A stretch of 11,760 nucleotides of DNA from UHGV virus genome UHGV-1590541; one strand, 5' to 3'. Under the pieces are notes generated by a model. The model searched no databases, was not told the origin of the DNA, and saw only the letters and a list, made by a program, of their open reading frames with translations. This stretch comes from a virus. Positions 3,574 through 11,760 of this stretch are shown here, in pieces. The translations under genes were made by a program, and so were the position numbers. The stretch's first letter is position 1. Each line of letters starts with the position of its first letter.

Positions 3574-5343
3574 ATGAATGCTGCCCTGACTGAACGACTG
3601 GTTTATGTCGCCCGCGCGGCACGTGACGCGGGGCATGGTAAACGCGGTGCAATATACGACGCTGCCTGTGCTGAACTTGGCATGTCCCGCGCCACTCTGC
3701 TGCGCAGGCTGAAGGAGGTCTCTGTGACTGATAAACGCAAAAAACGCGCCGATGCCGGGCGCAGCGCCCTGACCCGCGACGAAGCCGCGCTGATATCTGC
3801 CACACTGCGTGAGGCCACCCGCAAGAACGGTAAGCGTCTCTATTCCATCGCAGATGCAGTGGAAACCCTGCGGGCTAACGGCTTTATCACCGCAGGCAGA
3901 ACAGATGAAACCACCAGTGAGTTTTTCCCGTTGTCTGAAGATGCCATCAGCCGTGCTCTGCGTAACTATGGCCTGCCCCCGGAACAACTGGATGCCCCTG
4001 CACCACATACCGAAGTGGCCAGTCTGCATCCCAATCATGTCTGGCAGATTGACGCCTCACTCTGCACGCTTTACTACCTGAGCAATGGACATAAAGGGCT
4101 GCAGGTGATGGACAGCGCGAAGTTCTACAAGAACAAGCCCGCTAACCTTGCCCGTATCGCCAGTGACCGCGTGTGGAGTTACGAGATTACCGACCATGCC
4201 AGCGGCTGGATTTACGTTGAGTATGTGACGGGCGCGGAATCAGGTGAGAACCTGTGTTCTGTGCTTATCAACGCCATGCAGGAGCGTGGCGGCGCAGACG
4301 TGCTGCACGGCGTGCCGAAAATACTCTATCTCGACCCCGGCTCGGCAAACACCGCGGGTATGACGAAAAACATGTGCCGCTCACTGGGCATCGACCTGAT
4401 AGCGCACAAGCCGCATAACGCCCGCGCCACCGGACAGGTGGAAAAGGCGCGTGACATTATCGAACGCAAGCTGGAGCCGGGTCTGAAGTTCCGGCCGGTT
4501 CACGGTCTGGAAGAACTCAACGCGCTGGCCGCGAAATGGCGCAGCCACTTTAACGCCACGGCTGTTCACAGCCGCCACGGTAAAACCCGCACGGATATCT
4601 GGCTGAAGATTACTGCTGAGCAGCTGAAAAAAGCGCCTTCCGTTGAGGTATGTCGTGAACTGGCTGTGGCGGCACCAGAACTCCGCAAAGTCACGCCAAA
4701 ACTTCGTGTCTCGTTCCGGGGCACTGAATTTGACGTATCAACGGTACCGGGCGTACTGGTTGGTGAAAAACTGATGATTACCCGTAACCCATGGCGCAGC
4801 GATGTGGCACAGGTGGTTCTGACCGGTGAGGACGGCCACGAGACGTTCTTCCTGGTCGAAGAGGTCAGAAAGAACGAGTTTGGCTTTGCTGAAGGCGCGG
4901 CGGTATTTGGCGAAAGTTACAAAGCCCTGCCGGAAACCCCGGCACAGATGGCGGCAAAAGAAACCGAAGCGCTGGTTACCGGTACAGACAACGCCGCAGA
5001 TGCAGCCGCCGCACGCAAGGCGAAGGCGCTGCCGTTCGGCGGGCGGCTTGACCCGTATAAACATATCGACGACACCACACTTCCGGCCTATATGCCGAAG
5101 CGTGGTCAGGCCTCTGACGTACGCGGGCCGCGCACTGAACAACGTCCCATGACTCATGTGGAGGCCGCGAAAGCCCTGCGCGATAAGTTCAGCGCCGACG
5201 GCCTTACCTGGACGCCGGAACATTACCGCCAGTTAACGGCACAGTACCCGGACGGCGTACCGGAAGCCGCACTGGATGAAGTCATGGCCACGCTGACCAC
5301 ACCGGCCCGCAGCAGTGTTATCAGCATTGTTAACGGCAACTGA
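3574..5343 (+). CDS. DDE transposase (retroviral-integrase/rve-like catalytic core), functional analogue of Mu A (589 aa)
   Basis: GGAGG RBS. N-terminal HTH-like region, then candidate catalytic residues in HVWQIDASL, KILYLDPGSANTA and GQVEKARDIIERKLE, matching D..D..E spacing of rve-type transposases. Followed directly by an AAA+ ATPase, as in transposable phages. Confidence 0.9.
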   Translation: MNAALTERLVYVARAARDAGHGKRGAIYDAACAELGMSRATLLRRLKEVSVTDKRKKRADAGRSALTRDEAALISATLREATRKNGKRLYSIADAVETLRANGFITAGRTDETTSEFFPLSEDAISRALRNYGLPPEQLDAPAPHTEVASLHPNHVWQIDASLCTLYYLSNGHKGLQVMDSAKFYKNKPANLARIASDRVWSYEITDHASGWIYVEYVTGAESGENLCSVLINAMQERGGADVLHGVPKILYLDPGSANTAGMTKNMCRSLGIDLIAHKPHNARATGQVEKARDIIERKLEPGLKFRPVHGLEELNALAAKWRSHFNATAVHSRHGKTRTDIWLKITAEQLKKAPSVEVCRELAVAAPELRKVTPKLRVSFRGTEFDVSTVPGVLVGEKLMITRNPWRSDVAQVVLTGEDGHETFFLVEEVRKNEFGFAEGAAVFGESYKALPETPAQMAAKETEALVTGTDNAADAAAARKAKALPFGGRLDPYKHIDDTTLPAYMPKRGQASDVRGPRTEQRPMTHVEAAKALRDKFSADGLTWTPEHYRQLTAQYPDGVPEAALDEVMATLTTPARSSVISIVNGN

Positions 5344-5353
5344 GGAGGGAAAC

Positions 5354-6520
5354 ATGCTGGTACTGAAGCAGCAACTGAAAGAGGCCCGTATTCCACAGGC
5401 GGTGGTGGCGAGAGCTGTCGATGTTTCTGAGGCCACGCTGGCCCAGATTGTGAATCATAACGCGTGGCCCCGCACCAGCCCCGGAGAAGTGCGCCGGCGT
5501 CTTGCGTCCTGGCTGGAAAGTCAGGGGATTGATACAACGAAGAGTTTTGATGCTGTACAGGGCGCGGCCACGCCCCGTACAGCGGGTACCACAGATAAAA
5601 CGAGCCTCAGTGAGGAAGAGAATATGTTACTCAAAAAACAGGTGTTATTTCCAGCAACCAAAAAAGCGTTTGGTCTTTTCCGTGACCCGTTCGCCGACGA
5701 AGCCATGCAGGGTTCTGATGATGTGTTCACCACCCCGGACATTCGCTACGTGCGTGAGGCGCTGTACCAGACAGCCCGTCATGGTGGGTTTATGGCCGTC
5801 ATCGGTGAGTCCGGTGCGGGTAAATCCACGCTGCGCCGCGACCTGACTGAACGTATCAACCGCGAGAATGCGCCGGTAATTGTTATCGAGCCATACATCA
5901 TCGCTATGGAAGACAACGATGTGAAAGGGAAAACCCTGAAGGCAGCAGCTATTGCCGAAGCCATTATCAGTACCATCGCACCACTGGAAAGCATCAGACG
6001 CAGTCAGGACGCCCGTTTTCGCCAGTTGCATCGCGTCCTGAAAGACAGCAGCCAGGCGGGGTTCAGCCACGTTCTGGTGATTGAGGAGGCCCACAGTCTG
6101 CCCATTCCGACACTGAAACACCTCAAACGCTTTTTTGAGCTGGAGTCCGGTTTCAAAAAACTGCTGTCCATCGTGCTGATTGGCCAGCCGGAACTGGCGA
6201 CAAAACTGTCTGAACGCAATATGGAAGTCCGTGAAGTCGTTCAGCGCTGTGAGGTGGTCGAACTTCTGCCTCTGGACAATAACCTTGAAGAATTTCTGAC
6301 GTTCAAACTGCAACGGGCCGGTAAACAGCTGACGGACATTATGGACGCCGGTGCAGTGGATGCCATACGTGCCCGCCTGAGCAATCCGGGAAGTCACCGT
6401 AAAAATATGGTCAGCCTGCTGTATCCGCTGGCCGTCAGTAACCTGGTAATAGCCGCCATGAATCTGGCCGCTGAAATCGGGGTTCCACAGGTCAACGCTG
6501 ACGTTGTCAAAGGGGTTTAA
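5354..6520 (+). CDS. AAA+ ATPase transposition helper protein (MuB / TniB-like), N-terminal HTH (longest ORF starts at 5315)
   Basis: Walker A GESGAGKST and Walker B-like VLVIEEAH. GAGGAGGG RBS immediately upstream of ATG 5354, 11 nt after the transposase stop. Confidence 0.9.
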   Translation: MLVLKQQLKEARIPQAVVARAVDVSEATLAQIVNHNAWPRTSPGEVRRRLASWLESQGIDTTKSFDAVQGAATPRTAGTTDKTSLSEEENMLLKKQVLFPATKKAFGLFRDPFADEAMQGSDDVFTTPDIRYVREALYQTARHGGFMAVIGESGAGKSTLRRDLTERINRENAPVIVIEPYIIAMEDNDVKGKTLKAAAIAEAIISTIAPLESIRRSQDARFRQLHRVLKDSSQAGFSHVLVIEEAHSLPIPTLKHLKRFFELESGFKKLLSIVLIGQPELATKLSERNMEVREVVQRCEVVELLPLDNNLEEFLTFKLQRAGKQLTDIMDAGAVDAIRARLSNPGSHRKNMVSLLYPLAVSNLVIAAMNLAAEIGVPQVNADVVKGV

Positions 6521-6522
6521 TA

Positions 6523-6792
6523 ATGAAATCCACCACAGGTATCAACCAGCAAATCAGCAAAGTGCAGTCAGCCATTATGGCGCTTAAGGCGACGAACACG
6601 GATGTACAAAGCATCACCATCAGGGGTAACAAACCTGTCATCCGCGTTTCCCGGAGTGCGCATTGCATGCGCATGCTTGAGCAGGGAAAGGCCTGTTATC
6701 TGTATACCGGACATGACCACAGGGGATATTTCCGTCAGGGCGTTTTCGAACTGCACGGCTGTCGCGTCGTGTGGCCGGAATCTTTGTGGTAA
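6523..6792 (+). CDS. Hypothetical small early protein (89 aa)
   Basis: ATG 2 nt after the B stop, preceded by AAGGGG. No recognisable domain. Confidence 0.65.
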   Translation: MKSTTGINQQISKVQSAIMALKATNTDVQSITIRGNKPVIRVSRSAHCMRMLEQGKACYLYTGHDHRGYFRQGVFELHGCRVVWPESLW

Positions 6793-6819
6793 TCAGCACA
6801 ACTGGAGAAATCATAAAAA

Positions 6820-7350
6820 ATGGCAAAAAGTACAAAAGGTGCAAAACGTATCAAGGCCGCAGCAGCACTCTGGGTGCCGGGGACACGTGAAGAGGTCATT
6901 GAGGGAATCAGACTACTCGGTGACGCACAACGTGAACTGGTCAGGGCTGAAACAGAAATGAATGACGCCATTGGCGATATCACCGCACGTTATGCCCCGC
7001 TCACCGAGAGCCTGAAAAAACGCATGGCCGAACTGCAGTCCGGTATTCAGACATGGTGTGAGGCACACCGTGATGAACTGACCGGCAACGGGAAGGTGAA
7101 GTTCGCTAACCTCACCACCGGCGAGGTGCAGTGGCGAAACCGTCCGCCATCAGTCAGTATCCGTGGGGCGGATAATGTTATTGAATTACTGAGACGTCTG
7201 GGGCTTGAGCGCTTTATTCGTGTAAAAGAGGAAATAAATAAAGACGCTATCCTGAATGAAAAAGAGGCCGTGAAAAATATTCCCGGTATTTCCATTAAAA
7301 GCGACATTGAGGATTTTTCAATAATTCCTTTTGAGCAGGATGTGCAGTAA
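6820..7350 (+). CDS. gam: Host-nuclease inhibitor protein Gam (Mu Gam family, Ku-like DNA-end-binding)
   Basis: 176 aa. Long collinear matches to Mu Gam as I remember it: MAK..KRIK.AAA..VP at the N-terminus, ETEMNDAI, WCEA.RDELT, RPPSVSIRG, LERLGL.RFIR.K.EINKEAIL and a C-terminal IEDFSIIPFEQ. Confidence 0.95.
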   Translation: MAKSTKGAKRIKAAAALWVPGTREEVIEGIRLLGDAQRELVRAETEMNDAIGDITARYAPLTESLKKRMAELQSGIQTWCEAHRDELTGNGKVKFANLTTGEVQWRNRPPSVSIRGADNVIELLRRLGLERFIRVKEEINKDAILNEKEAVKNIPGISIKSDIEDFSIIPFEQDVQ

Positions 7351-7447
7351 ACACACCACGTTAATTATTTAATAAAAACATTTTCTTTTTTATTCCGACG
7401 TCAGCGCCGCGGGCTTCTGCACGCCGGAAACAGAGGAGAATTAAATC

Positions 7448-7642
7448 ATGATATTTAAATGTATTCAGTGCGAGAGGGATATAACAGCCCTGCGTTTTCA
7501 CAGCGCCATCGCCGTGATGTCCGGTAAATACCACATCCCTGCGGTACGCGTCACCCTGGTCTGCCCGTACTGCAGCCAGCATTTTTCGGCAGACGTGCCC
7601 GTCATGGAATTCTCCCGCCCTGACAGGGAGGACTCGCAATGA
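7448..7642 (+). CDS. Small zinc-ribbon protein (64 aa, CxxC...CxxC)
   Basis: Cys pairs at C5/C8 and C39/C42. Its stop overlaps the next gene start (ATGA at 7639-7642). Preceded by a 97-bp AT-rich spacer after gam. Confidence 0.65.
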   Translation: MIFKCIQCERDITALRFHSAIAVMSGKYHIPAVRVTLVCPYCSQHFSADVPVMEFSRPDREDSQ

Positions 7643-7911
7643 TTACCCCACAGGAAGCACGACAGCGCACCCGAACCCTTGTTGAACACTATGTCAACGA
7701 GTGTGAATGCCGCGACCTCACCGATGTGAAGCACGTCCTGACGGCGCTAATCAGCATGACCGCTCAAGCCATTGTGGCGACCAACGGAAAGGCGGCTGCC
7801 CTGCAGGTACTGGTGAACACACTAACCCACACGGCAGCGCATGAGGTGCCGTACCGGATGGAAACCACTGCAGAAGGCGGCCTGCACATCACCGTCAGCC
7901 GGAAGCACTGA
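7639..7911 (+). CDS. Hypothetical small early protein (90 aa)
   Basis: Translationally coupled to the upstream gene (ATGA overlap). No recognisable domain. Confidence 0.6.
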   Translation: MITPQEARQRTRTLVEHYVNECECRDLTDVKHVLTALISMTAQAIVATNGKAAALQVLVNTLTHTAAHEVPYRMETTAEGGLHITVSRKH

Positions 7912-7920
7912 GGGCGCGGC

Positions 7921-8217
7921 ATGACACGGAACACCATACTCACCCGCACCGCCCTCTACCGTCTGGCCCTGCAGCGTTTCGGGCCGGACGCACAGGCCCT
8001 GAAACTGACAGAAGAGGCCGCTGAACTGGCGGCCAGTGCTGCCCGCAATCTGAACGGACAGGGCAGCGAAAGCGACCTCGCGGCAGAGCTGGCAGACGTG
8101 GAAATCATGACAGAGCAATTGCGCCTTCAGGGGATGGACCGGCTGATTGACTTCCACAAACAGAAAAAACTGGAACGTCTGGCTGCACGACTGGGCGTGA
8201 TTTACACGAACGAGTAA
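7921..8217 (+). CDS. MazG-like all-alpha nucleoside triphosphate pyrophosphohydrolase domain protein (98 aa), tentative
   Basis: GAGGG RBS. Contains EExxE (LTEEAAELA) followed about 30 residues later by ExxD (AELADVEIM), the metal-binding signature of MazG-like NTP-PPases. Confidence 0.55.
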   Translation: MTRNTILTRTALYRLALQRFGPDAQALKLTEEAAELAASAARNLNGQGSESDLAAELADVEIMTEQLRLQGMDRLIDFHKQKKLERLAARLGVIYTNE

Positions 8218-8231
8218 CCGGGAGGCATTCA

Positions 8232-8447
8232 ATGGCTGACATACTCAGGGAAATCACCGCATGGATACTGATTCTTACTGGCCTGGCGACATGCCTCAGT
8301 GCGGGGGCAGCCCTGGCTGCCCTGCTGATGCACATAACAACACAGTGGTTATGGGAAAAGCTTAAAGCAGCATACAGCCTGAAAGAGCTGTCCGACGCTG
8401 TCCGGGCATGGAAACGGCAGAAAAATACCGGAGATACAGAACAATGA
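8232..8447 (+). CDS. Small membrane protein (71 aa, one TM helix)
   Basis: GGGAGG RBS. Hydrophobic stretch ITAWILILTGLATCLSAGAALAALLM. Stop overlaps the next start (ATGA at 8444-8447). Confidence 0.6.
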   Translation: MADILREITAWILILTGLATCLSAGAALAALLMHITTQWLWEKLKAAYSLKELSDAVRAWKRQKNTGDTEQ

Positions 8448-9127
8448 CAGACCAGAATAAACACATTGAGAAACTGAAAAAGTTGCTGGCGCTGGCCGCA
8501 TCCGGCAACCCGCACGAGGCCGCTCTGGCACTGCGCCGAGCCCGTAAACTGATGGATGTTCACGGCATCACACATTCCGACATTGCTATGAGTGATATTG
8601 ATGAAACCATCAGTCACTACTGGCCGACAGGCAGTCTCCGTCCACCGCGCTACATGCTGGGCCTGATGAACATCATCCGCGAGGTATTTGGTGTTAACTC
8701 CATCATTCACCCCGGCACGCATCCGTCTGTGGGGTTCTACGGCAACCGGGAACGTGCGGCACTGGCTGCATACACCTGGGAAGTGCTGGCCCGTCAGCTG
8801 AAAAAGGCGCGTCAGCAGTATATCAGTGCACAGAACAAAAGAATAAAAACCGCCACCCGCACCAGCCGTGGAGACCAGTTTGCCGAAGGCTGGGTGCTGG
8901 CCGTTATCAGTGAAATACAGTCCTTTGCCCTGACCGATGATGAGCGTGAACTGATGCAGCAGTGGCTGGAACATAAATACCCGCAGACGCAAACCACCAG
9001 GGCGCGTAAACCGGGAAGAAGCCGCAATGGCGACGCCTCGCGCTATGCGGGGTTTCGTGAAGGGCAGAACGTCAGACTGCACCGCCCGGTCAGTGGGCAG
9101 GAACAACAGAAACTGGAGGCCAGATGA
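8444..9127 (+). CDS. DUF2786-like phage protein (227 aa; longest ORF starts at 8408)
   Basis: N-terminal KHIEKLKKLLALAASGNPHEAALALRRARKLM matches the DUF2786 signature as I remember it. ATG 8444 is coupled to the upstream stop. Confidence 0.7.
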   Translation: MTDQNKHIEKLKKLLALAASGNPHEAALALRRARKLMDVHGITHSDIAMSDIDETISHYWPTGSLRPPRYMLGLMNIIREVFGVNSIIHPGTHPSVGFYGNRERAALAAYTWEVLARQLKKARQQYISAQNKRIKTATRTSRGDQFAEGWVLAVISEIQSFALTDDERELMQQWLEHKYPQTQTTRARKPGRSRNGDASRYAGFREGQNVRLHRPVSGQEQQKLEAR

Positions 9128-9354
9128 TTACGCTATCAGGTAAAAGCCGGAAATTAAAAGCCTGCCGAATATCTGCCAGATACCTTTTTGCCCGCGCCTT
9201 TTTTAAGAACGTCAGGCCGGGGATCACAATTGGTGTTATTGCCGGACGCGAACAGGTTGAAAAATACATGTCAGGTGCATGGTGGAATAACGACCCTGTC
9301 ATTGCTGCCCGTAATATTCATATCGAATGGGGAGGTATTCAGAATGACTACTGA
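9124..9354 (+). CDS. Hypothetical small early protein (76 aa)
   Basis: ATG overlaps the upstream stop (ATGA at 9124-9127). No recognisable domain. Confidence 0.5.
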   Translation: MITLSGKSRKLKACRISARYLFARAFFKNVRPGITIGVIAGREQVEKYMSGAWWNNDPVIAARNIHIEWGGIQNDY

Positions 9355-9550
9355 AACCATTGTCTGTTTTCTTTTCTGGTATATGTACGCAGGATCATGC
9401 AGCGCAAGACTTCATCGTTCCCTGGGCTATGGCAGGCACTACGACACCGCGCATTACATCCTGTACATGACCGCCGTCATGTTGTTCTGGCCAGTCACCC
9501 TGCCAGCTGCAACCGACATTGTTGCCGACAGACTGAAAAAAAGGAGATGA
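9344..9550 (+). CDS. Small hydrophobic/membrane protein (68 aa); internal start of the longer ORF 9188-9550
   Basis: GGGGAGG RBS 7 nt upstream of ATG 9344. Two hydrophobic segments (TIVCFLFWYMYAG and ILYMTAVMLFWPVTLPAA). Stop lies 1 nt before the gemA-like start. Confidence 0.5.
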   Translation: MTTETIVCFLFWYMYAGSCSARLHRSLGYGRHYDTAHYILYMTAVMLFWPVTLPAATDIVADRLKKRR

Positions 9551-9551
9551 T

Positions 9552-10001
9552 ATGCAGAAAAAACGCCTGATACAGCTTATCCATATTGCCCGTAATGAAC
9601 TGGGTATGGATGAAGACACCTACCGCCAGATGTTACAGGGGCTGACCGGTAAAGCCTCAACCAAAGGAATGGATACCACACAACTAAACTGCGTGCTGGA
9701 ATCCATGAAAAAGAAAGGCTTTCGCGTTAAACCAGCCAGAAAAGCCAGCTCCGGTTTACCGCTGGATAACCATCCGCAGTCCAGGAAAATTCGTGCGCTA
9801 TGGCTTGAAATGGCTGCTGCCGGCATTGTTCGTGACCGTTCAGAAAATGCATTAGCGAGGTGGATCAAGCGGGAAACGGGCATCAGCGCCCTGCGCTGGC
9901 TCAGTACTGAACAGGCAAGCAGTGTTATTGAGAAACTGAAGAAGTGGCAGCGCAGAGCTGCGGGAGTCAAACATGAGCGACCTGAATCAGTTTCGAAGTA
10001 A
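9552..10001 (+). CDS. gemA: GemA-like regulatory protein (Mu gp16 family, DUF1018)
   Basis: AGGAG RBS. LIQLIHIARNELGMDEDTYRQML..LTGKAS and RKIRALWLEMAAAGIV resemble the Mu gp16/GemA family. Sits immediately upstream of and overlapping mor, as in Mu. Confidence 0.8.
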   Translation: MQKKRLIQLIHIARNELGMDEDTYRQMLQGLTGKASTKGMDTTQLNCVLESMKKKGFRVKPARKASSGLPLDNHPQSRKIRALWLEMAAAGIVRDRSENALARWIKRETGISALRWLSTEQASSVIEKLKKWQRRAAGVKHERPESVSK

Positions 10002-10362
10002 GGGGCCGGAACTCCTGGTGGAACTGGCACAGCATACCTCTGAGACCGTTCGCGAGATTATTGATATTGAGCCCGAAGTTGCCGACCAGATTGGTCAGGC
10101 CGTCGCGAACCGAATGATGCAGGTCTGGGGCGGGCAAAACGTTTATTTCCCGATGGGCATGGTATGGAAGGTCAGTCAGCGCGACCGGGAAATCTTCAGG
10201 GAGTTTAACGGACGCAACCACCACGAACTGGCCCGCAAATTTGGTGTTTCGCTTCAGTGGGTCTACAGCGTGGTTAAGCGGGTAAGAAAAGAAGAACTGG
10301 ATCGGATGCAGGGCAAGCTATTTGCTGATGAACCCGATGCAGATACGGAGAAAAAAGAGTAA
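9973..10362 (+). CDS. mor: Mor-family transcription activator (middle operon regulator)
   Basis: 129 aa, same length as Mu Mor. C-terminal half (VWGGQNVYFPMG...FREFNGRNHHELARKFGVSLQWVYSVVKRVRK) aligns closely with the Mu Mor HTH region as I remember it. Confidence 0.9.
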   Translation: MSDLNQFRSKGPELLVELAQHTSETVREIIDIEPEVADQIGQAVANRMMQVWGGQNVYFPMGMVWKVSQRDREIFREFNGRNHHELARKFGVSLQWVYSVVKRVRKEELDRMQGKLFADEPDADTEKKE

Positions 10363-10391
10363 TATCTGCAATCAGGCTGGCGCGAGTTCTG

Positions 10392-10448
<57 letters not shown>

Positions 10449-10449
10449 A

Positions 10450-10525
<76 letters not shown>

Positions 10526-10776
10526 CCAAGTCCCCGTGTCAAAAAGTCATCTGTGTAAGATTCCAATCATACATATGGACTCAGATTGGCCTGTGTCCGT
10601 GCTTCCTAAAGGAATTCACAGATTCAGTCCTAATCATGATGACACATTAGCGAAGCTATGCCATGTCAGATACAGGTTCACTTAGTCGCGGTCTTACCAG
10701 TCTGGCCTTTAATACTCGTTAATCCTTAGCAATCAGTAGGTTGGTTTTATTTTTCAACAGACAGAAGTAGTTTCAT

Positions 10777-11760
10777 TTACATATATGCAGCTCCCATCAC
10801 TTCTTCTGGTGAAATCTCTTTATCGTTGGTTAGCAATACCCAGAGCACTCTGGCATTTTTGTTGTTCAGCGCTACGGTGGCAACATTTTTATTCCGCCGC
10901 GAGACTGGTCTGCCCAGCCAGCTTTCCTGGACCTGTCTGCCCTTTCTGGCGTTTGACACTGTCTTCGCACCATGGAACAGTAGCGTTCTGATATAGACAT
11001 CGTCCCGTTTACTGATAGACCCCAGCGTGTTTTTACCTACGCTGAAGCACTGTCGGGGAACCAGTCCAAGCCATGCAGCAAGCTGACGCCGGTTTTTGAA
11101 GCCGATACTACCCGGTGCTGACAATTGCAGTGGTGGTAAGAATAGCAATCCCCGAAATGGTGGCAATTTTCCTGCACAGTTCGTCGTTCCCGACGTGTTC
11201 GTTGCTAACGGCTTCTATGGTTTCAATGTGTACGCTCAGTTGTTTCACATTTTCATTAGAGATAGGACGACAGCTGTCTGAACGGCATTGTTAAACAGTT
11301 TTCCGCGTCTTCAAGCAGGGCAGGGACATGACGACTGATCGCTACAGTGTCGGGCGGGAGAACGATGCCAAATTCAGCCAGTAATCCTCTGATCTGGTTT
11401 ATCTGCGCAGTCCTTGATTTAACAAACCCCGTCAGGGCACGATGAAAAGACAGTAATGACTACTGCTCAGGCGTCTTGATGCTGACAAACCGCATATTAG
11501 GTCGGGTAACGGCTTCACAGATGGCCTCGGCAGCAGCCATATCATTCTTGTTTGTTTTCACATATGGCTTTACAAATCGCGGGCATTAGTCTGACATTAT
11601 GCCCCTAAGTAGACAGCATTCTCACTAATGACGCGCTCCGGCGCAGACCTCCATCCCAATCCGACAGGAAGACATATTCGCGAAGAATACGGGCATCAGG
11701 GAACGTTTAATCCGTTTTCTGAGCTTAGATTTTTCTGTTCCTACCCAGACCGTGGATTTG
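10777..11760 (-). pseudogene. IS110-family (DEDD) transposase, decayed: multiple in-frame stops and frameshifts; N-terminus beyond window end
   Basis: Minus-strand translation gives segments in three frames that read collinearly like an IS110-family transposase: FFANMSSCRIGMEVCAGARH, PYVKTNKNDMAAAEAICEAVTRPNMRFVSIKTPEQ, IRGLLAEFGIV, ISGIAILTTTAIV, RRQLAAWLGLVPRQ...ISKRDDVYIRTLLFHGAKTV, VATVALNNKNARVLW. In-frame stops at 11622-11627 (TAG TGA), 11586-11588 (TAA) and 11460-11462 (TAG); frame changes near 11256 and near 11110-11125. Confidence 0.8.

Follow-up and report, generated by a model that had tools for sequence, protein, structure and literature searches.

A probable counterpart of the Mu semi-essential region in a BcepMu-like transposable prophage of Escherichia coli, with a candidate relative of Mu Kil

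What is encoded by the dense run of small genes between the transposition ATPase gene and gemA in the virus genome UHGV-1590541, and which of these genes, if any, corresponds to the host-killing gene kil of phage Mu? Judged from its sequence, the element in the 11,760-nucleotide stretch that was analysed (the window) is a BcepMu-like transposable prophage of Escherichia coli, and the genes in question fill positions 6523-9550. The answer favoured here, with a probability of about 0.85, is that this segment is the accessory, or 'semi-essential' (SE), part of the early operon of that prophage. Its first gene very probably encodes a remote homologue of Mu Kil, and the useful re-assignment is that this gene, and not the two membrane mini-proteins of the array, becomes the Kil candidate.

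The array consists of nine genes, numbered g1 to g9, all on the + strand and 64-227 aa in length. Its upstream anchor is the gene of a transposition ATPase of the ExeA/AAA family (5354-6520, +; 'ExeA family protein' in the PGAP annotation), the analogue of Mu B, and its downstream anchor is gemA (9552-10001, +; Pfam GemA, E 8e-41). In Mu, the SE/SEE region (kil, gp6-gp9, gam, gp11-gp15) occupies the same place in the operon, between the transposition ATPase gene and gemA-mor, and is made of the same densely packed small genes. Both regions contain Gam (E 8e-66), a Kil protein or its remote homologue after B and, possibly, a zinc-ribbon protein (gp6 in Mu). The Mu SE region, in which 14 open reading frames (ORFs) were counted, is transcribed with A and B, and its deletion restores host viability after infection (PMC3325207). 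Consensus scans of 6400-10500 found neither a sigma-70-like promoter nor an intrinsic terminator above shuffled expectation. An earlier note on this DNA had equated the array with the Mu SE region, a reservoir of host-takeover functions; the equation holds in position and strand, in the lack of internal promoter or terminator signals above chance, in Gam and in the remote Kil homologue, and gene content varies between relatives as expected of an accessory reservoir.

The likeness has clear limits. Nine genes are present here versus eleven (kil to gp15) between B and gemA in the RefSeq record of Mu, for g4-g9, six of the nine, no counterpart was detected in Mu, and gam is second in this array but sixth in Mu. 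The B analogue is an ExeA-type ATPase rather than Mu B, and the operon runs in the direction of the prophage end, an orientation shared with BcepMu and not with Mu.

That the nine genes exist as drawn is supported from several sides. About 95% of 6523-9550 is coding, the RefSeq/PGAP annotation of identical prophage copies contains exactly the same nine genes, each of the nine start codons (ATG) is preceded at 4-13 nt by a Shine-Dalgarno-like motif of the GGAG type, and every product matches a PHROG family (E 3e-34 to 5e-77). The coordinates given for the nine short genes in the earlier note are correct. Its description of the junctions as mostly overlapping is only partly so. Four of the eight internal junctions overlap, three by ATGA (g3/g4, g6/g7 and g7/g8) and one by 11 nt (g8/g9); the others are gaps of 27 nt (g1/gam), 97 nt (gam/g3), 9 nt (g4/g5) and 14 nt (g5/g6). 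At the borders of the array, g1 follows the ATPase gene after 2 nt and gemA follows g9 after 1 nt.

Selection was assessed from the ratio of nonsynonymous to synonymous polymorphism (pN/pS), pooled over the unique alleles of about 40 close loci from IMG/VR and RefSeq. The ratios of g1 (0.18), gam (0.05), g3 (0.09), g5 (0.13) and g7 (0.09), where variation is informative, indicate purifying selection. The values for g4 (0.53), g6 (0.75, from only about 20 substitutions) and g8 (0.60) give a weak or uninformative signal, and g9 shows no variation within its own allele class. Together with gene content in relatives, the array appears to divide into conserved genes (g1, gam, g3, g5 and g7) and swappable ones (g4, g6, g8 and g9).

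Could some of the small ORFs, especially g4, g8 and g9, be chance ORFs in a GC-rich transcript? The weak or uninformative selection in g4, g6, g8 and g9 and their lack of Pfam domains would fit such an idea, as would the occurrence of long spurious ORFs in other frames and strands of this region. One of these, an antisense ORF of 333 aa (8105-9106, -) spanning g5-g7 and a possible trap for gene callers, is almost certainly spurious, since g7 on the + strand has Pfam domains and a pN/pS of 0.09. However, in the close loci every unique allele of g1 and g3-g9 is intact (for gam, 19 of 20 alleles are), the Shine-Dalgarno motifs are properly spaced, the PHROG matches of the doubtful ORFs reach E <= 1e-40, and starts and stops stay in register with the neighbouring genes. 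The diverged E. coli prophage L028, moreover, keeps g8 at 71% and g9 at 38% identity with motifs preserved. Chance ORFs are thus an extremely improbable explanation.

The gene that bears most directly on the opening question is g1 (6523-6792, +), which encodes a soluble alpha/beta protein of 89 aa named 'HI_1482 family' by PGAP (phrog_2041, E 3e-36) and modelled by AlphaFold2 (AF2) with a mean confidence (pLDDT) of 93 and the secondary-structure order alpha-beta-beta-alpha-beta-beta-beta. In a direct comparison with a set of 29 proteins that included the Mu early proteins, Mu Kil was its top match, at E 0.078. Run against 1.84 billion representative sequences, a profile built from relatives of g1 retrieved 84 family members, and an alignment of 54 of them contains the motifs K-P-x-I-R-I and L-x-G-C-R-V-x-W. 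When this 54-sequence family was compared with Mu Kil by hhalign, a probability of 88-90% was obtained (E 2-3e-6) over 72-73 of the 74 residues of Kil. The controls were far lower: none of 24 other Mu and BcepMu early proteins exceeded 5.5%, Kil with its sequence reversed reached 0.2%, and 30 shuffled versions stayed at or below 5.6%. The family also aligned at 81% with 15 Kil variants and at 80% with BcepMu gp07, the product of the gene after the BcepMu ATPase gene.

Other comparisons point the same way. A hidden Markov model (HMM) of the g1 family aligns the full length of Mu Kil at 16.4 bits, and individual family members match the Kil families phrog_2743 (5 of 54, best 3.9e-5) and phrog_6381 (4 of 54, best 1.3e-5). 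One member, P0084, which the g1 profile detected at E 1.5e-4, has a weak precomputed match to the Pfam family PF26843 (Kil_protein), to which all close relatives of Mu Kil belong. Mu Kil itself (Mup05; PF26843; phrog_2743/6381/2679) is, like g1, small, soluble (no hydrophobic segment in a hydrophobicity scan) and encoded right after the transposition ATPase gene, and the two families have in common the motifs (K/R)P-x-I/L-x-I and L-x-G-C-(R/Q)-(V/I)-x-W within a full-length profile alignment. Between g1 and Mu Kil, identity is about 17% over the aligned columns, with 15 more residues in g1. When Mu Kil served as the query, all relatives retrieved were at least 79% identical to it, too close for a deeper Kil profile.

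Gene position adds to the sequence comparison, for g1 directly follows the B-like ATPase gene, which is Kil's own position in Mu. This placement, or one shifted by one or two ORFs, recurs for the Kil or Kil-like gene in Mu, BcepMu, Dickeya, Brenneria, Rodentibacter and four metagenomic contigs of transposable phages. Around distant family members the order is transposase, AAA ATPase, zero to two ORFs, the g1-family gene, DUF3164 or Gam, and then GemA and Mor. In L122, the family member with the highest score against the Mu Kil HMM (P0043; 1775-2056) follows the gene of a 297-aa ATPase with a helix-turn-helix (HTH) and an AAA_22 domain (870-1763); this ATPase has the size of Mu B and is not of the ExeA type, which suggests that the Kil-like gene travels with both kinds of transposition ATPase.

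Homology in sequence would not by itself settle function. According to PMC3961180, which cites Waggoner 1989, expression of Mu Kil kills the host and makes its cells spherical rather than filamentous; such an effect is a defect of elongation and not a block of division. Whether g1 is functionally equivalent to Mu Kil in host killing and in the disruption of cell shape is, by analogy, an evenly balanced question, and a literature search on DUF2786, DUF7168, HI1482 and the mechanism of Mu Kil found no functional study. Somewhat more tentatively, the HI_1482 family (phrog_2041), BcepMu gp07 (phrog_2043) and Mu Kil (PF26843) may be branches of a single ancient superfamily of alpha/beta proteins. 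These would be 75-120 aa long and built on a nucleotidyltransferase-like core without catalytic activity; in most transposable phages their gene would lie right after that of the transposition ATPase, and they would act on a common cell-shape target.

The earlier note had looked for Kil-like candidates elsewhere, among two membrane mini-proteins, g6 and g9. The membrane character is clear for g6 (8232-8447, +; 71 aa; phrog_3958), a single-pass protein with one strong predicted transmembrane (TM) helix at residues 12-32 (summed Hessa dG -1.2) followed by a basic amphipathic C-terminal helix; by the positive-inside rule, a topology with the N-terminus out and the C-terminus in is predicted. It is only probable for g9 (9344-9550, +; 68 aa; phrog_6436), whose two marginally hydrophobic, aromatic-rich segments (Hessa +2.4 and +3.3) around a basic loop would form a two-helix hairpin. 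Longer versions of g9, starting at TTG or GTG at 9188 or 9233, were dropped, since the ATG at 9344 has GGGGAGG upstream and is the start chosen by PGAP.

That g6 and g9 are the Kil-like division inhibitors of this phage has some arguments in its favour. Both lie in the early operon, one with a clear TM helix and the other with two hydrophobic segments, and small membrane proteins of the SidA or Blr type can inhibit division. On the other hand, neither protein resembles any Kil family. Each matches a single PHROG of unknown function, neither has a Pfam match above threshold (for g9 nothing at E <= 0.1, for g6 two chance-level sub-threshold matches at E 0.05-0.08), and phmmer comparisons of both with Mu Kil gave E > 2. 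Mu Kil is soluble and, according to PMC3961180, rounds cells rather than making them filamentous, and a Kil homologue is already present as g1 at Kil's own position. The absence of g6 from 8 of 47 related loci with no other change, and the exchange of g9 for an allele of about 40% identity, also argue against membership of a conserved host-takeover core. The FtsZ-directed division inhibitors Kil of phage lambda and KilR of Rac, which are likewise small, host-toxic early or prophage proteins, are unrelated in sequence to Mu Kil (PMC3961180). Pfam and PHROG scans relate them to no gene of the array either. Neither of the two is known to be a membrane protein, unlike g6 and g9. The proposal is thus improbable, and g1 is retained as the Kil candidate. 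With low confidence, g6 and g9 may instead act on the cell envelope or inner membrane, where excluding superinfecting phages or modulating the envelope would be the most plausible roles.

The comparison of related loci, which had been suggested as a way of finding hypervariable slots, did locate them: g9 and g8 are swapped, g6 is an insertion/deletion module and g4 has a hypervariable N-terminus. Loci without g6 (for example L027 2522-2827, compared with 7921-8447 of the window) have a g5 that ends in ...YTGDTEQ, encoded by what are the last six codons of g6. Loci with and without g6, which is also missing from L028, therefore differ by a clean indel of about 220 bp, whose junction shows a TAC microhomology, and g6 behaves as a discrete, moron-like cassette. 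In a second allele of g6 the TM segment is divergent and the C-terminal helix identical. At least two allele classes of g9 exist, with 37-42% identity to each other and neighbours that are 97% identical; both retain LFWY...G-x-C-x-A-x-LHR...WPV-x-LP, and their tails are oppositely charged.

The slot just upstream of gemA, occupied here by g9, is filled differently in other elements: by an unrelated 105-aa TM protein in Dickeya (L003 7257-7574), by ORFs of 64-66 aa with the lipobox LLVSAC in Symbiopectobacterium (L004 7461-7661) and Brenneria (L005 6678-6872), and by a hydrophobic 63-aa ORF in a Mu-like prophage contig from a deltaproteobacterium (L018 6525-6716). This slot seems to collect small envelope proteins. 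A common role for a conserved slot of this kind, such as superinfection exclusion, is an idea weaker still than that of the Kil superfamily.

Turnover is also seen at the remaining swappable genes. The protein g4 (7639-7911, +; 90 aa; phrog_3691) evolves fast, its hypervariable part being the N-terminal 38 aa or so; it has 22 protein alleles in the roughly 40 loci, and its gene is missing from L028. The slot of g8 (9124-9354, +; 76 aa; phrog_3681), a basic protein with an isoelectric point (pI) of 10.2, is replaceable. In L059 and L070 (4683-5090) it holds a 135-aa protein with a CxxC motif and a coiled coil, and in the viral contig L049 g8 is split at about 4800-6000 by an insertion sequence (IS) of the IS3 family, with orfA/orfB on the - strand. 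Pfam and PDB searches revealed no recognisable relatives of g4 and g8 outside their own PHROGs. Bearing at most indirectly on dispensability for plaque formation, the semi-essential property, are these natural changes in related prophages: deletion of g6, replacement or IS interruption of g8 and absence of g4.

Such a pattern raises the question of whether the array is chiefly a counter-defence island, in which g4, g6, g8 and g9 would be anti-defence or superinfection-exclusion genes under diversifying selection. Replacement proceeds slot by slot with breakpoints at gene borders, the pN/pS values of g4 (0.53) and g8 (0.60) and the 22 alleles of g4 would fit, relatives carry differing cargo between gam and gemA, and Gam itself is a nuclease inhibitor. 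Against this, all pN/pS values lie below 1, few substitutions underlie those of g6 and g8, and a PADLOC scan of all nine proteins gave no match, although PADLOC models defence systems and not counter-defence proteins. As the chief role of the array it is doubtful; it is nevertheless compatible with the assignment of the array to the semi-essential part of the early operon.

The conserved genes other than g1 were also more recognisable than had been thought. The earlier note had recognised only Gam and the DUF2786-like protein; a probable nucleoside triphosphate (NTP) pyrophosphohydrolase (g5), a zinc-ribbon protein (g3) and the Kil-like g1 can be added. The product of g2 (6820-7350, +; 176 aa) is by sequence unambiguously Gam, the DNA-end-binding inhibitor of host nucleases (Pfam Phage_Mu_Gam, E 1e-40, 139.6 bits against a cutoff of 28.3; phmmer against Mu Gam, E 8e-66). 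A DUF3164 gene takes the place of gam in several related prophages (L028 3411-4022, L123 4387-5004, L125 5180-5800 and BcepMu gp05). It looks as if either Gam or DUF3164 can fill the slot behind the Kil-like gene, which hints at an analogous role for DUF3164.

Behind gam lies a conserved spacer of 97 nt (7351-7447, +), composed of an AT-rich stretch and a GC-rich hairpin, with few substitutions among 25 loci. In Mu, too, gam is followed by a gap of about 98 nt. The predicted RNA fold of the spacer has a free energy (dG) of -22.3 kcal/mol (z -2.1); the hairpin TTCCGACG...CGCCGGAA sits inside a longer fold, in which the U-rich run UUUUCUUUUUU is predicted to pair with the Shine-Dalgarno sequence of g3. 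The fold may tune the translation of g3, or it may be a processing site. The spacer has no Rfam match, as is true of the whole window, and received no promoter or terminator call.

The next gene, g3 (7448-7642, +), encodes a zinc-ribbon mini-protein of 64 aa (phrog_3401) with a CxxC...CPxC pattern, whose four cysteines are kept in copies of 25-30% identity from Brenneria and Symbiopectobacterium. One annotation source labels it RpoP-like. Its relationship to Mu gp6 is suggestive, hhalign giving a probability of only 52% (E 1.5e-4). In the GenBank record of phage PhiKM an antisense ORF (7361-7582, -) is annotated instead of g3. This ORF was rejected: with a pN/pS of 1.41 in the antisense and 0.09 in the sense direction, and with the conserved CxxC...CPxC, g3 is the real gene.

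The product of g5 (7921-8217, +; 98 aa) is probably an all-alpha, MazG-like NTP pyrophosphohydrolase. Among the PHROGs, phrog_2245 ('nucleoside triphosphate pyrophosphohydrolase') is matched at E 3e-34 and the pyrophosphatase families phrog_4856 (5.5e-4) and phrog_1992 (4.4e-3) more weakly, and newer PGAP and IMG annotations use the same name. Members of the MazG-like superfamily carry a metal-binding E-x2-E ... E-x2-D motif on two helices. Among five homologues of g5 (54-100% identity), the stretch L-x-E31-E32-A-A-E35 keeps E31 and E35 throughout and has K for E32 in one, and E56-L-A-D59-V-E61 keeps E56, D59 and E61 in all; at the sequence level these residues agree with the motif.

The largest product, g7 (8444-9127, +; 227 aa), combines an N-terminal helical hairpin, DUF2786 (43.0 bits, cutoff 23.9), with DUF7168 (90.4 bits, cutoff 25.5). 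In the predicted structure the core appears similar to a type-I KH fold (beta-alpha-alpha-beta-beta-alpha), with a basic helix behind it, features of the model that weakly hint at nucleic-acid binding; inspection of a 24-sequence alignment revealed no conserved GXXG nucleic-acid-binding loop in the core, at residues 58-68 or elsewhere. An NCBIfam scan of all nine proteins gave no match, and PDB sequence searches with g4, g5, g7 and g8 and with the family profiles of g1, g5 and g7 gave nothing below E 0.1.

Taken as the semi-essential part of an early operon, the array could work as follows. After induction or infection, one early transcript would carry transposase, the B-like ATPase, the nine genes, gemA and mor, and would stop about 160 bp short of the prophage end. 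Translation of every small gene would start from a ribosome-binding site of its own, with coupling at the four overlaps. By analogy with Mu Kil, g1 would shut down host growth and shape, while Gam would shield the linear ends of phage DNA from host exonucleases and g5, if it is an NTP pyrophosphohydrolase, would reshape the nucleotide pool. The proteins g3 and g7 may act on nucleic acids or on host proteins, and g4, g6, g8 and g9 may supply accessory functions of fast turnover. Among these, g6 as a single-pass protein and g9 as a probable hairpin would act at the inner membrane, and not as homologues of Kil.

Several points weigh against this account. At PHROG E <= 0.01, g1 itself matches phrog_2041 and no Kil model, its close relatives are without any precomputed Pfam domain, and a BFVD fold search with its model returned one family member and not Mu Kil, so that the link to Kil has no structural confirmation. 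The Pfam matches of g5 are sub-threshold (PRA-PH 0.047 in g5; below the gathering score in homologues, with PRA-PH in four of five, best 0.0019, and MazG in one of five, 0.018). It has no PDB relative in the sequence searches, and hhalign found no relation between it and the BcepMu pyrophosphatase gp06. We infer the single transcript from consensus scans only, and what is proposed for g6 and g9 is guesswork based on their topology and place in the array.

The genomic setting agrees with the assignment of the element. The 3.3 kb around the array are 99.5% identical to Escherichia phage PhiKM, which is classified in Bcepmuvirus, and 100% identical to chromosomal segments of many E. coli genomes. 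The prophage was found in 640 of 5426 complete E. coli genomes (about 1 in 8), strains of O25b:H4-ST131 among them. The window has the layout of the BcepMu early region: the repressor gene (1584-2045, -), a ner-like gene, an HTH gene and a DUF3102 gene, then the transposase gene (3574-5343) upstream of the ATPase gene, the array, gemA and, as the final gene of the operon, mor (9973-10362, +; 'Mor transcription activator family' in PGAP). The pN/pS of the ATPase gene is 0.09, and its product matches BcepMu gp08 at E 3e-145 (phmmer); GemA matches at E 4e-34 and Mor at E 1e-44 (phmmer, gp01). PhiKM places the two phages in the same genus-level class.

In BcepMu the early region runs from gp08 (ATPase) through gp07, gp06 (pyrophosphatase), gp05 (DUF3164), gp04 (HU) and gp03 to gp02 (GemA) and gp01 (Mor). 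As here, the ATPase gene is followed at once by a Kil-like one, gp07, and the operon reaches the genome end; a pyrophosphatase gene occurs in BcepMu and probably here as well. The places of Gam, g3, g4 and g6-g9, however, are taken in BcepMu by DUF3164, HU and gp03. The E. coli prophage L028, with DUF3164 in place of Gam, is intermediate between the two. The array would then be the BcepMu-lineage form of the Mu SE region, and whatever it shares with neither Mu nor BcepMu is cargo specific to its lineage.

The prophage end was placed at 10524/10525, where homology with copies at other chromosomal sites stops. All blastn alignments with L001 (beside grxA), L026 (beside ycaL), L027 and L002 end there, so that the early operon, after mor, reaches to about 160 bp from the prophage end. 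Elsewhere, identical copies of the prophage adjoin grxA, ycaL or a LysR gene (pseudogene), and such differing chromosomal sites are expected of a transposable phage. The flank beyond (10526-11760) is a chromosomal locus of an IS110-family transposase, present in 4147 of the 5426 genomes. At the other side of the window, a gene for a 328-aa protein with a central hydrophobic segment (601-1587, -) lies directly downstream of the repressor gene and overlaps it, an arrangement like that of the repressor and membrane protein genes gp17/gp18 of BcepMu. This protein would be made in the lysogen and is a candidate for an exclusion or immunity-associated function.

Overall, the region is of an ordinary, already annotated kind, an expected feature of Mu-like phages that leaves current understanding unchanged. 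What is new is modest: the link between HI_1482/phrog_2041 and Mu Kil, the slot map and the correction of the g3 annotation in PhiKM. This prophage is encountered very often in clinical E. coli, O25b:H4-ST131 among them, and seven of its nine accessory early genes are hypothetical in many records. The model of g1 provides a high-confidence structure prediction for a family whose founder, Mu Kil, has had no known target since 1989. If the superfamily is real, the binding partner of Mu Kil would become approachable by comparison, with a confident structural model in hand, and the map of conserved and swappable slots shows where counter-defence or exclusion genes may be sought.

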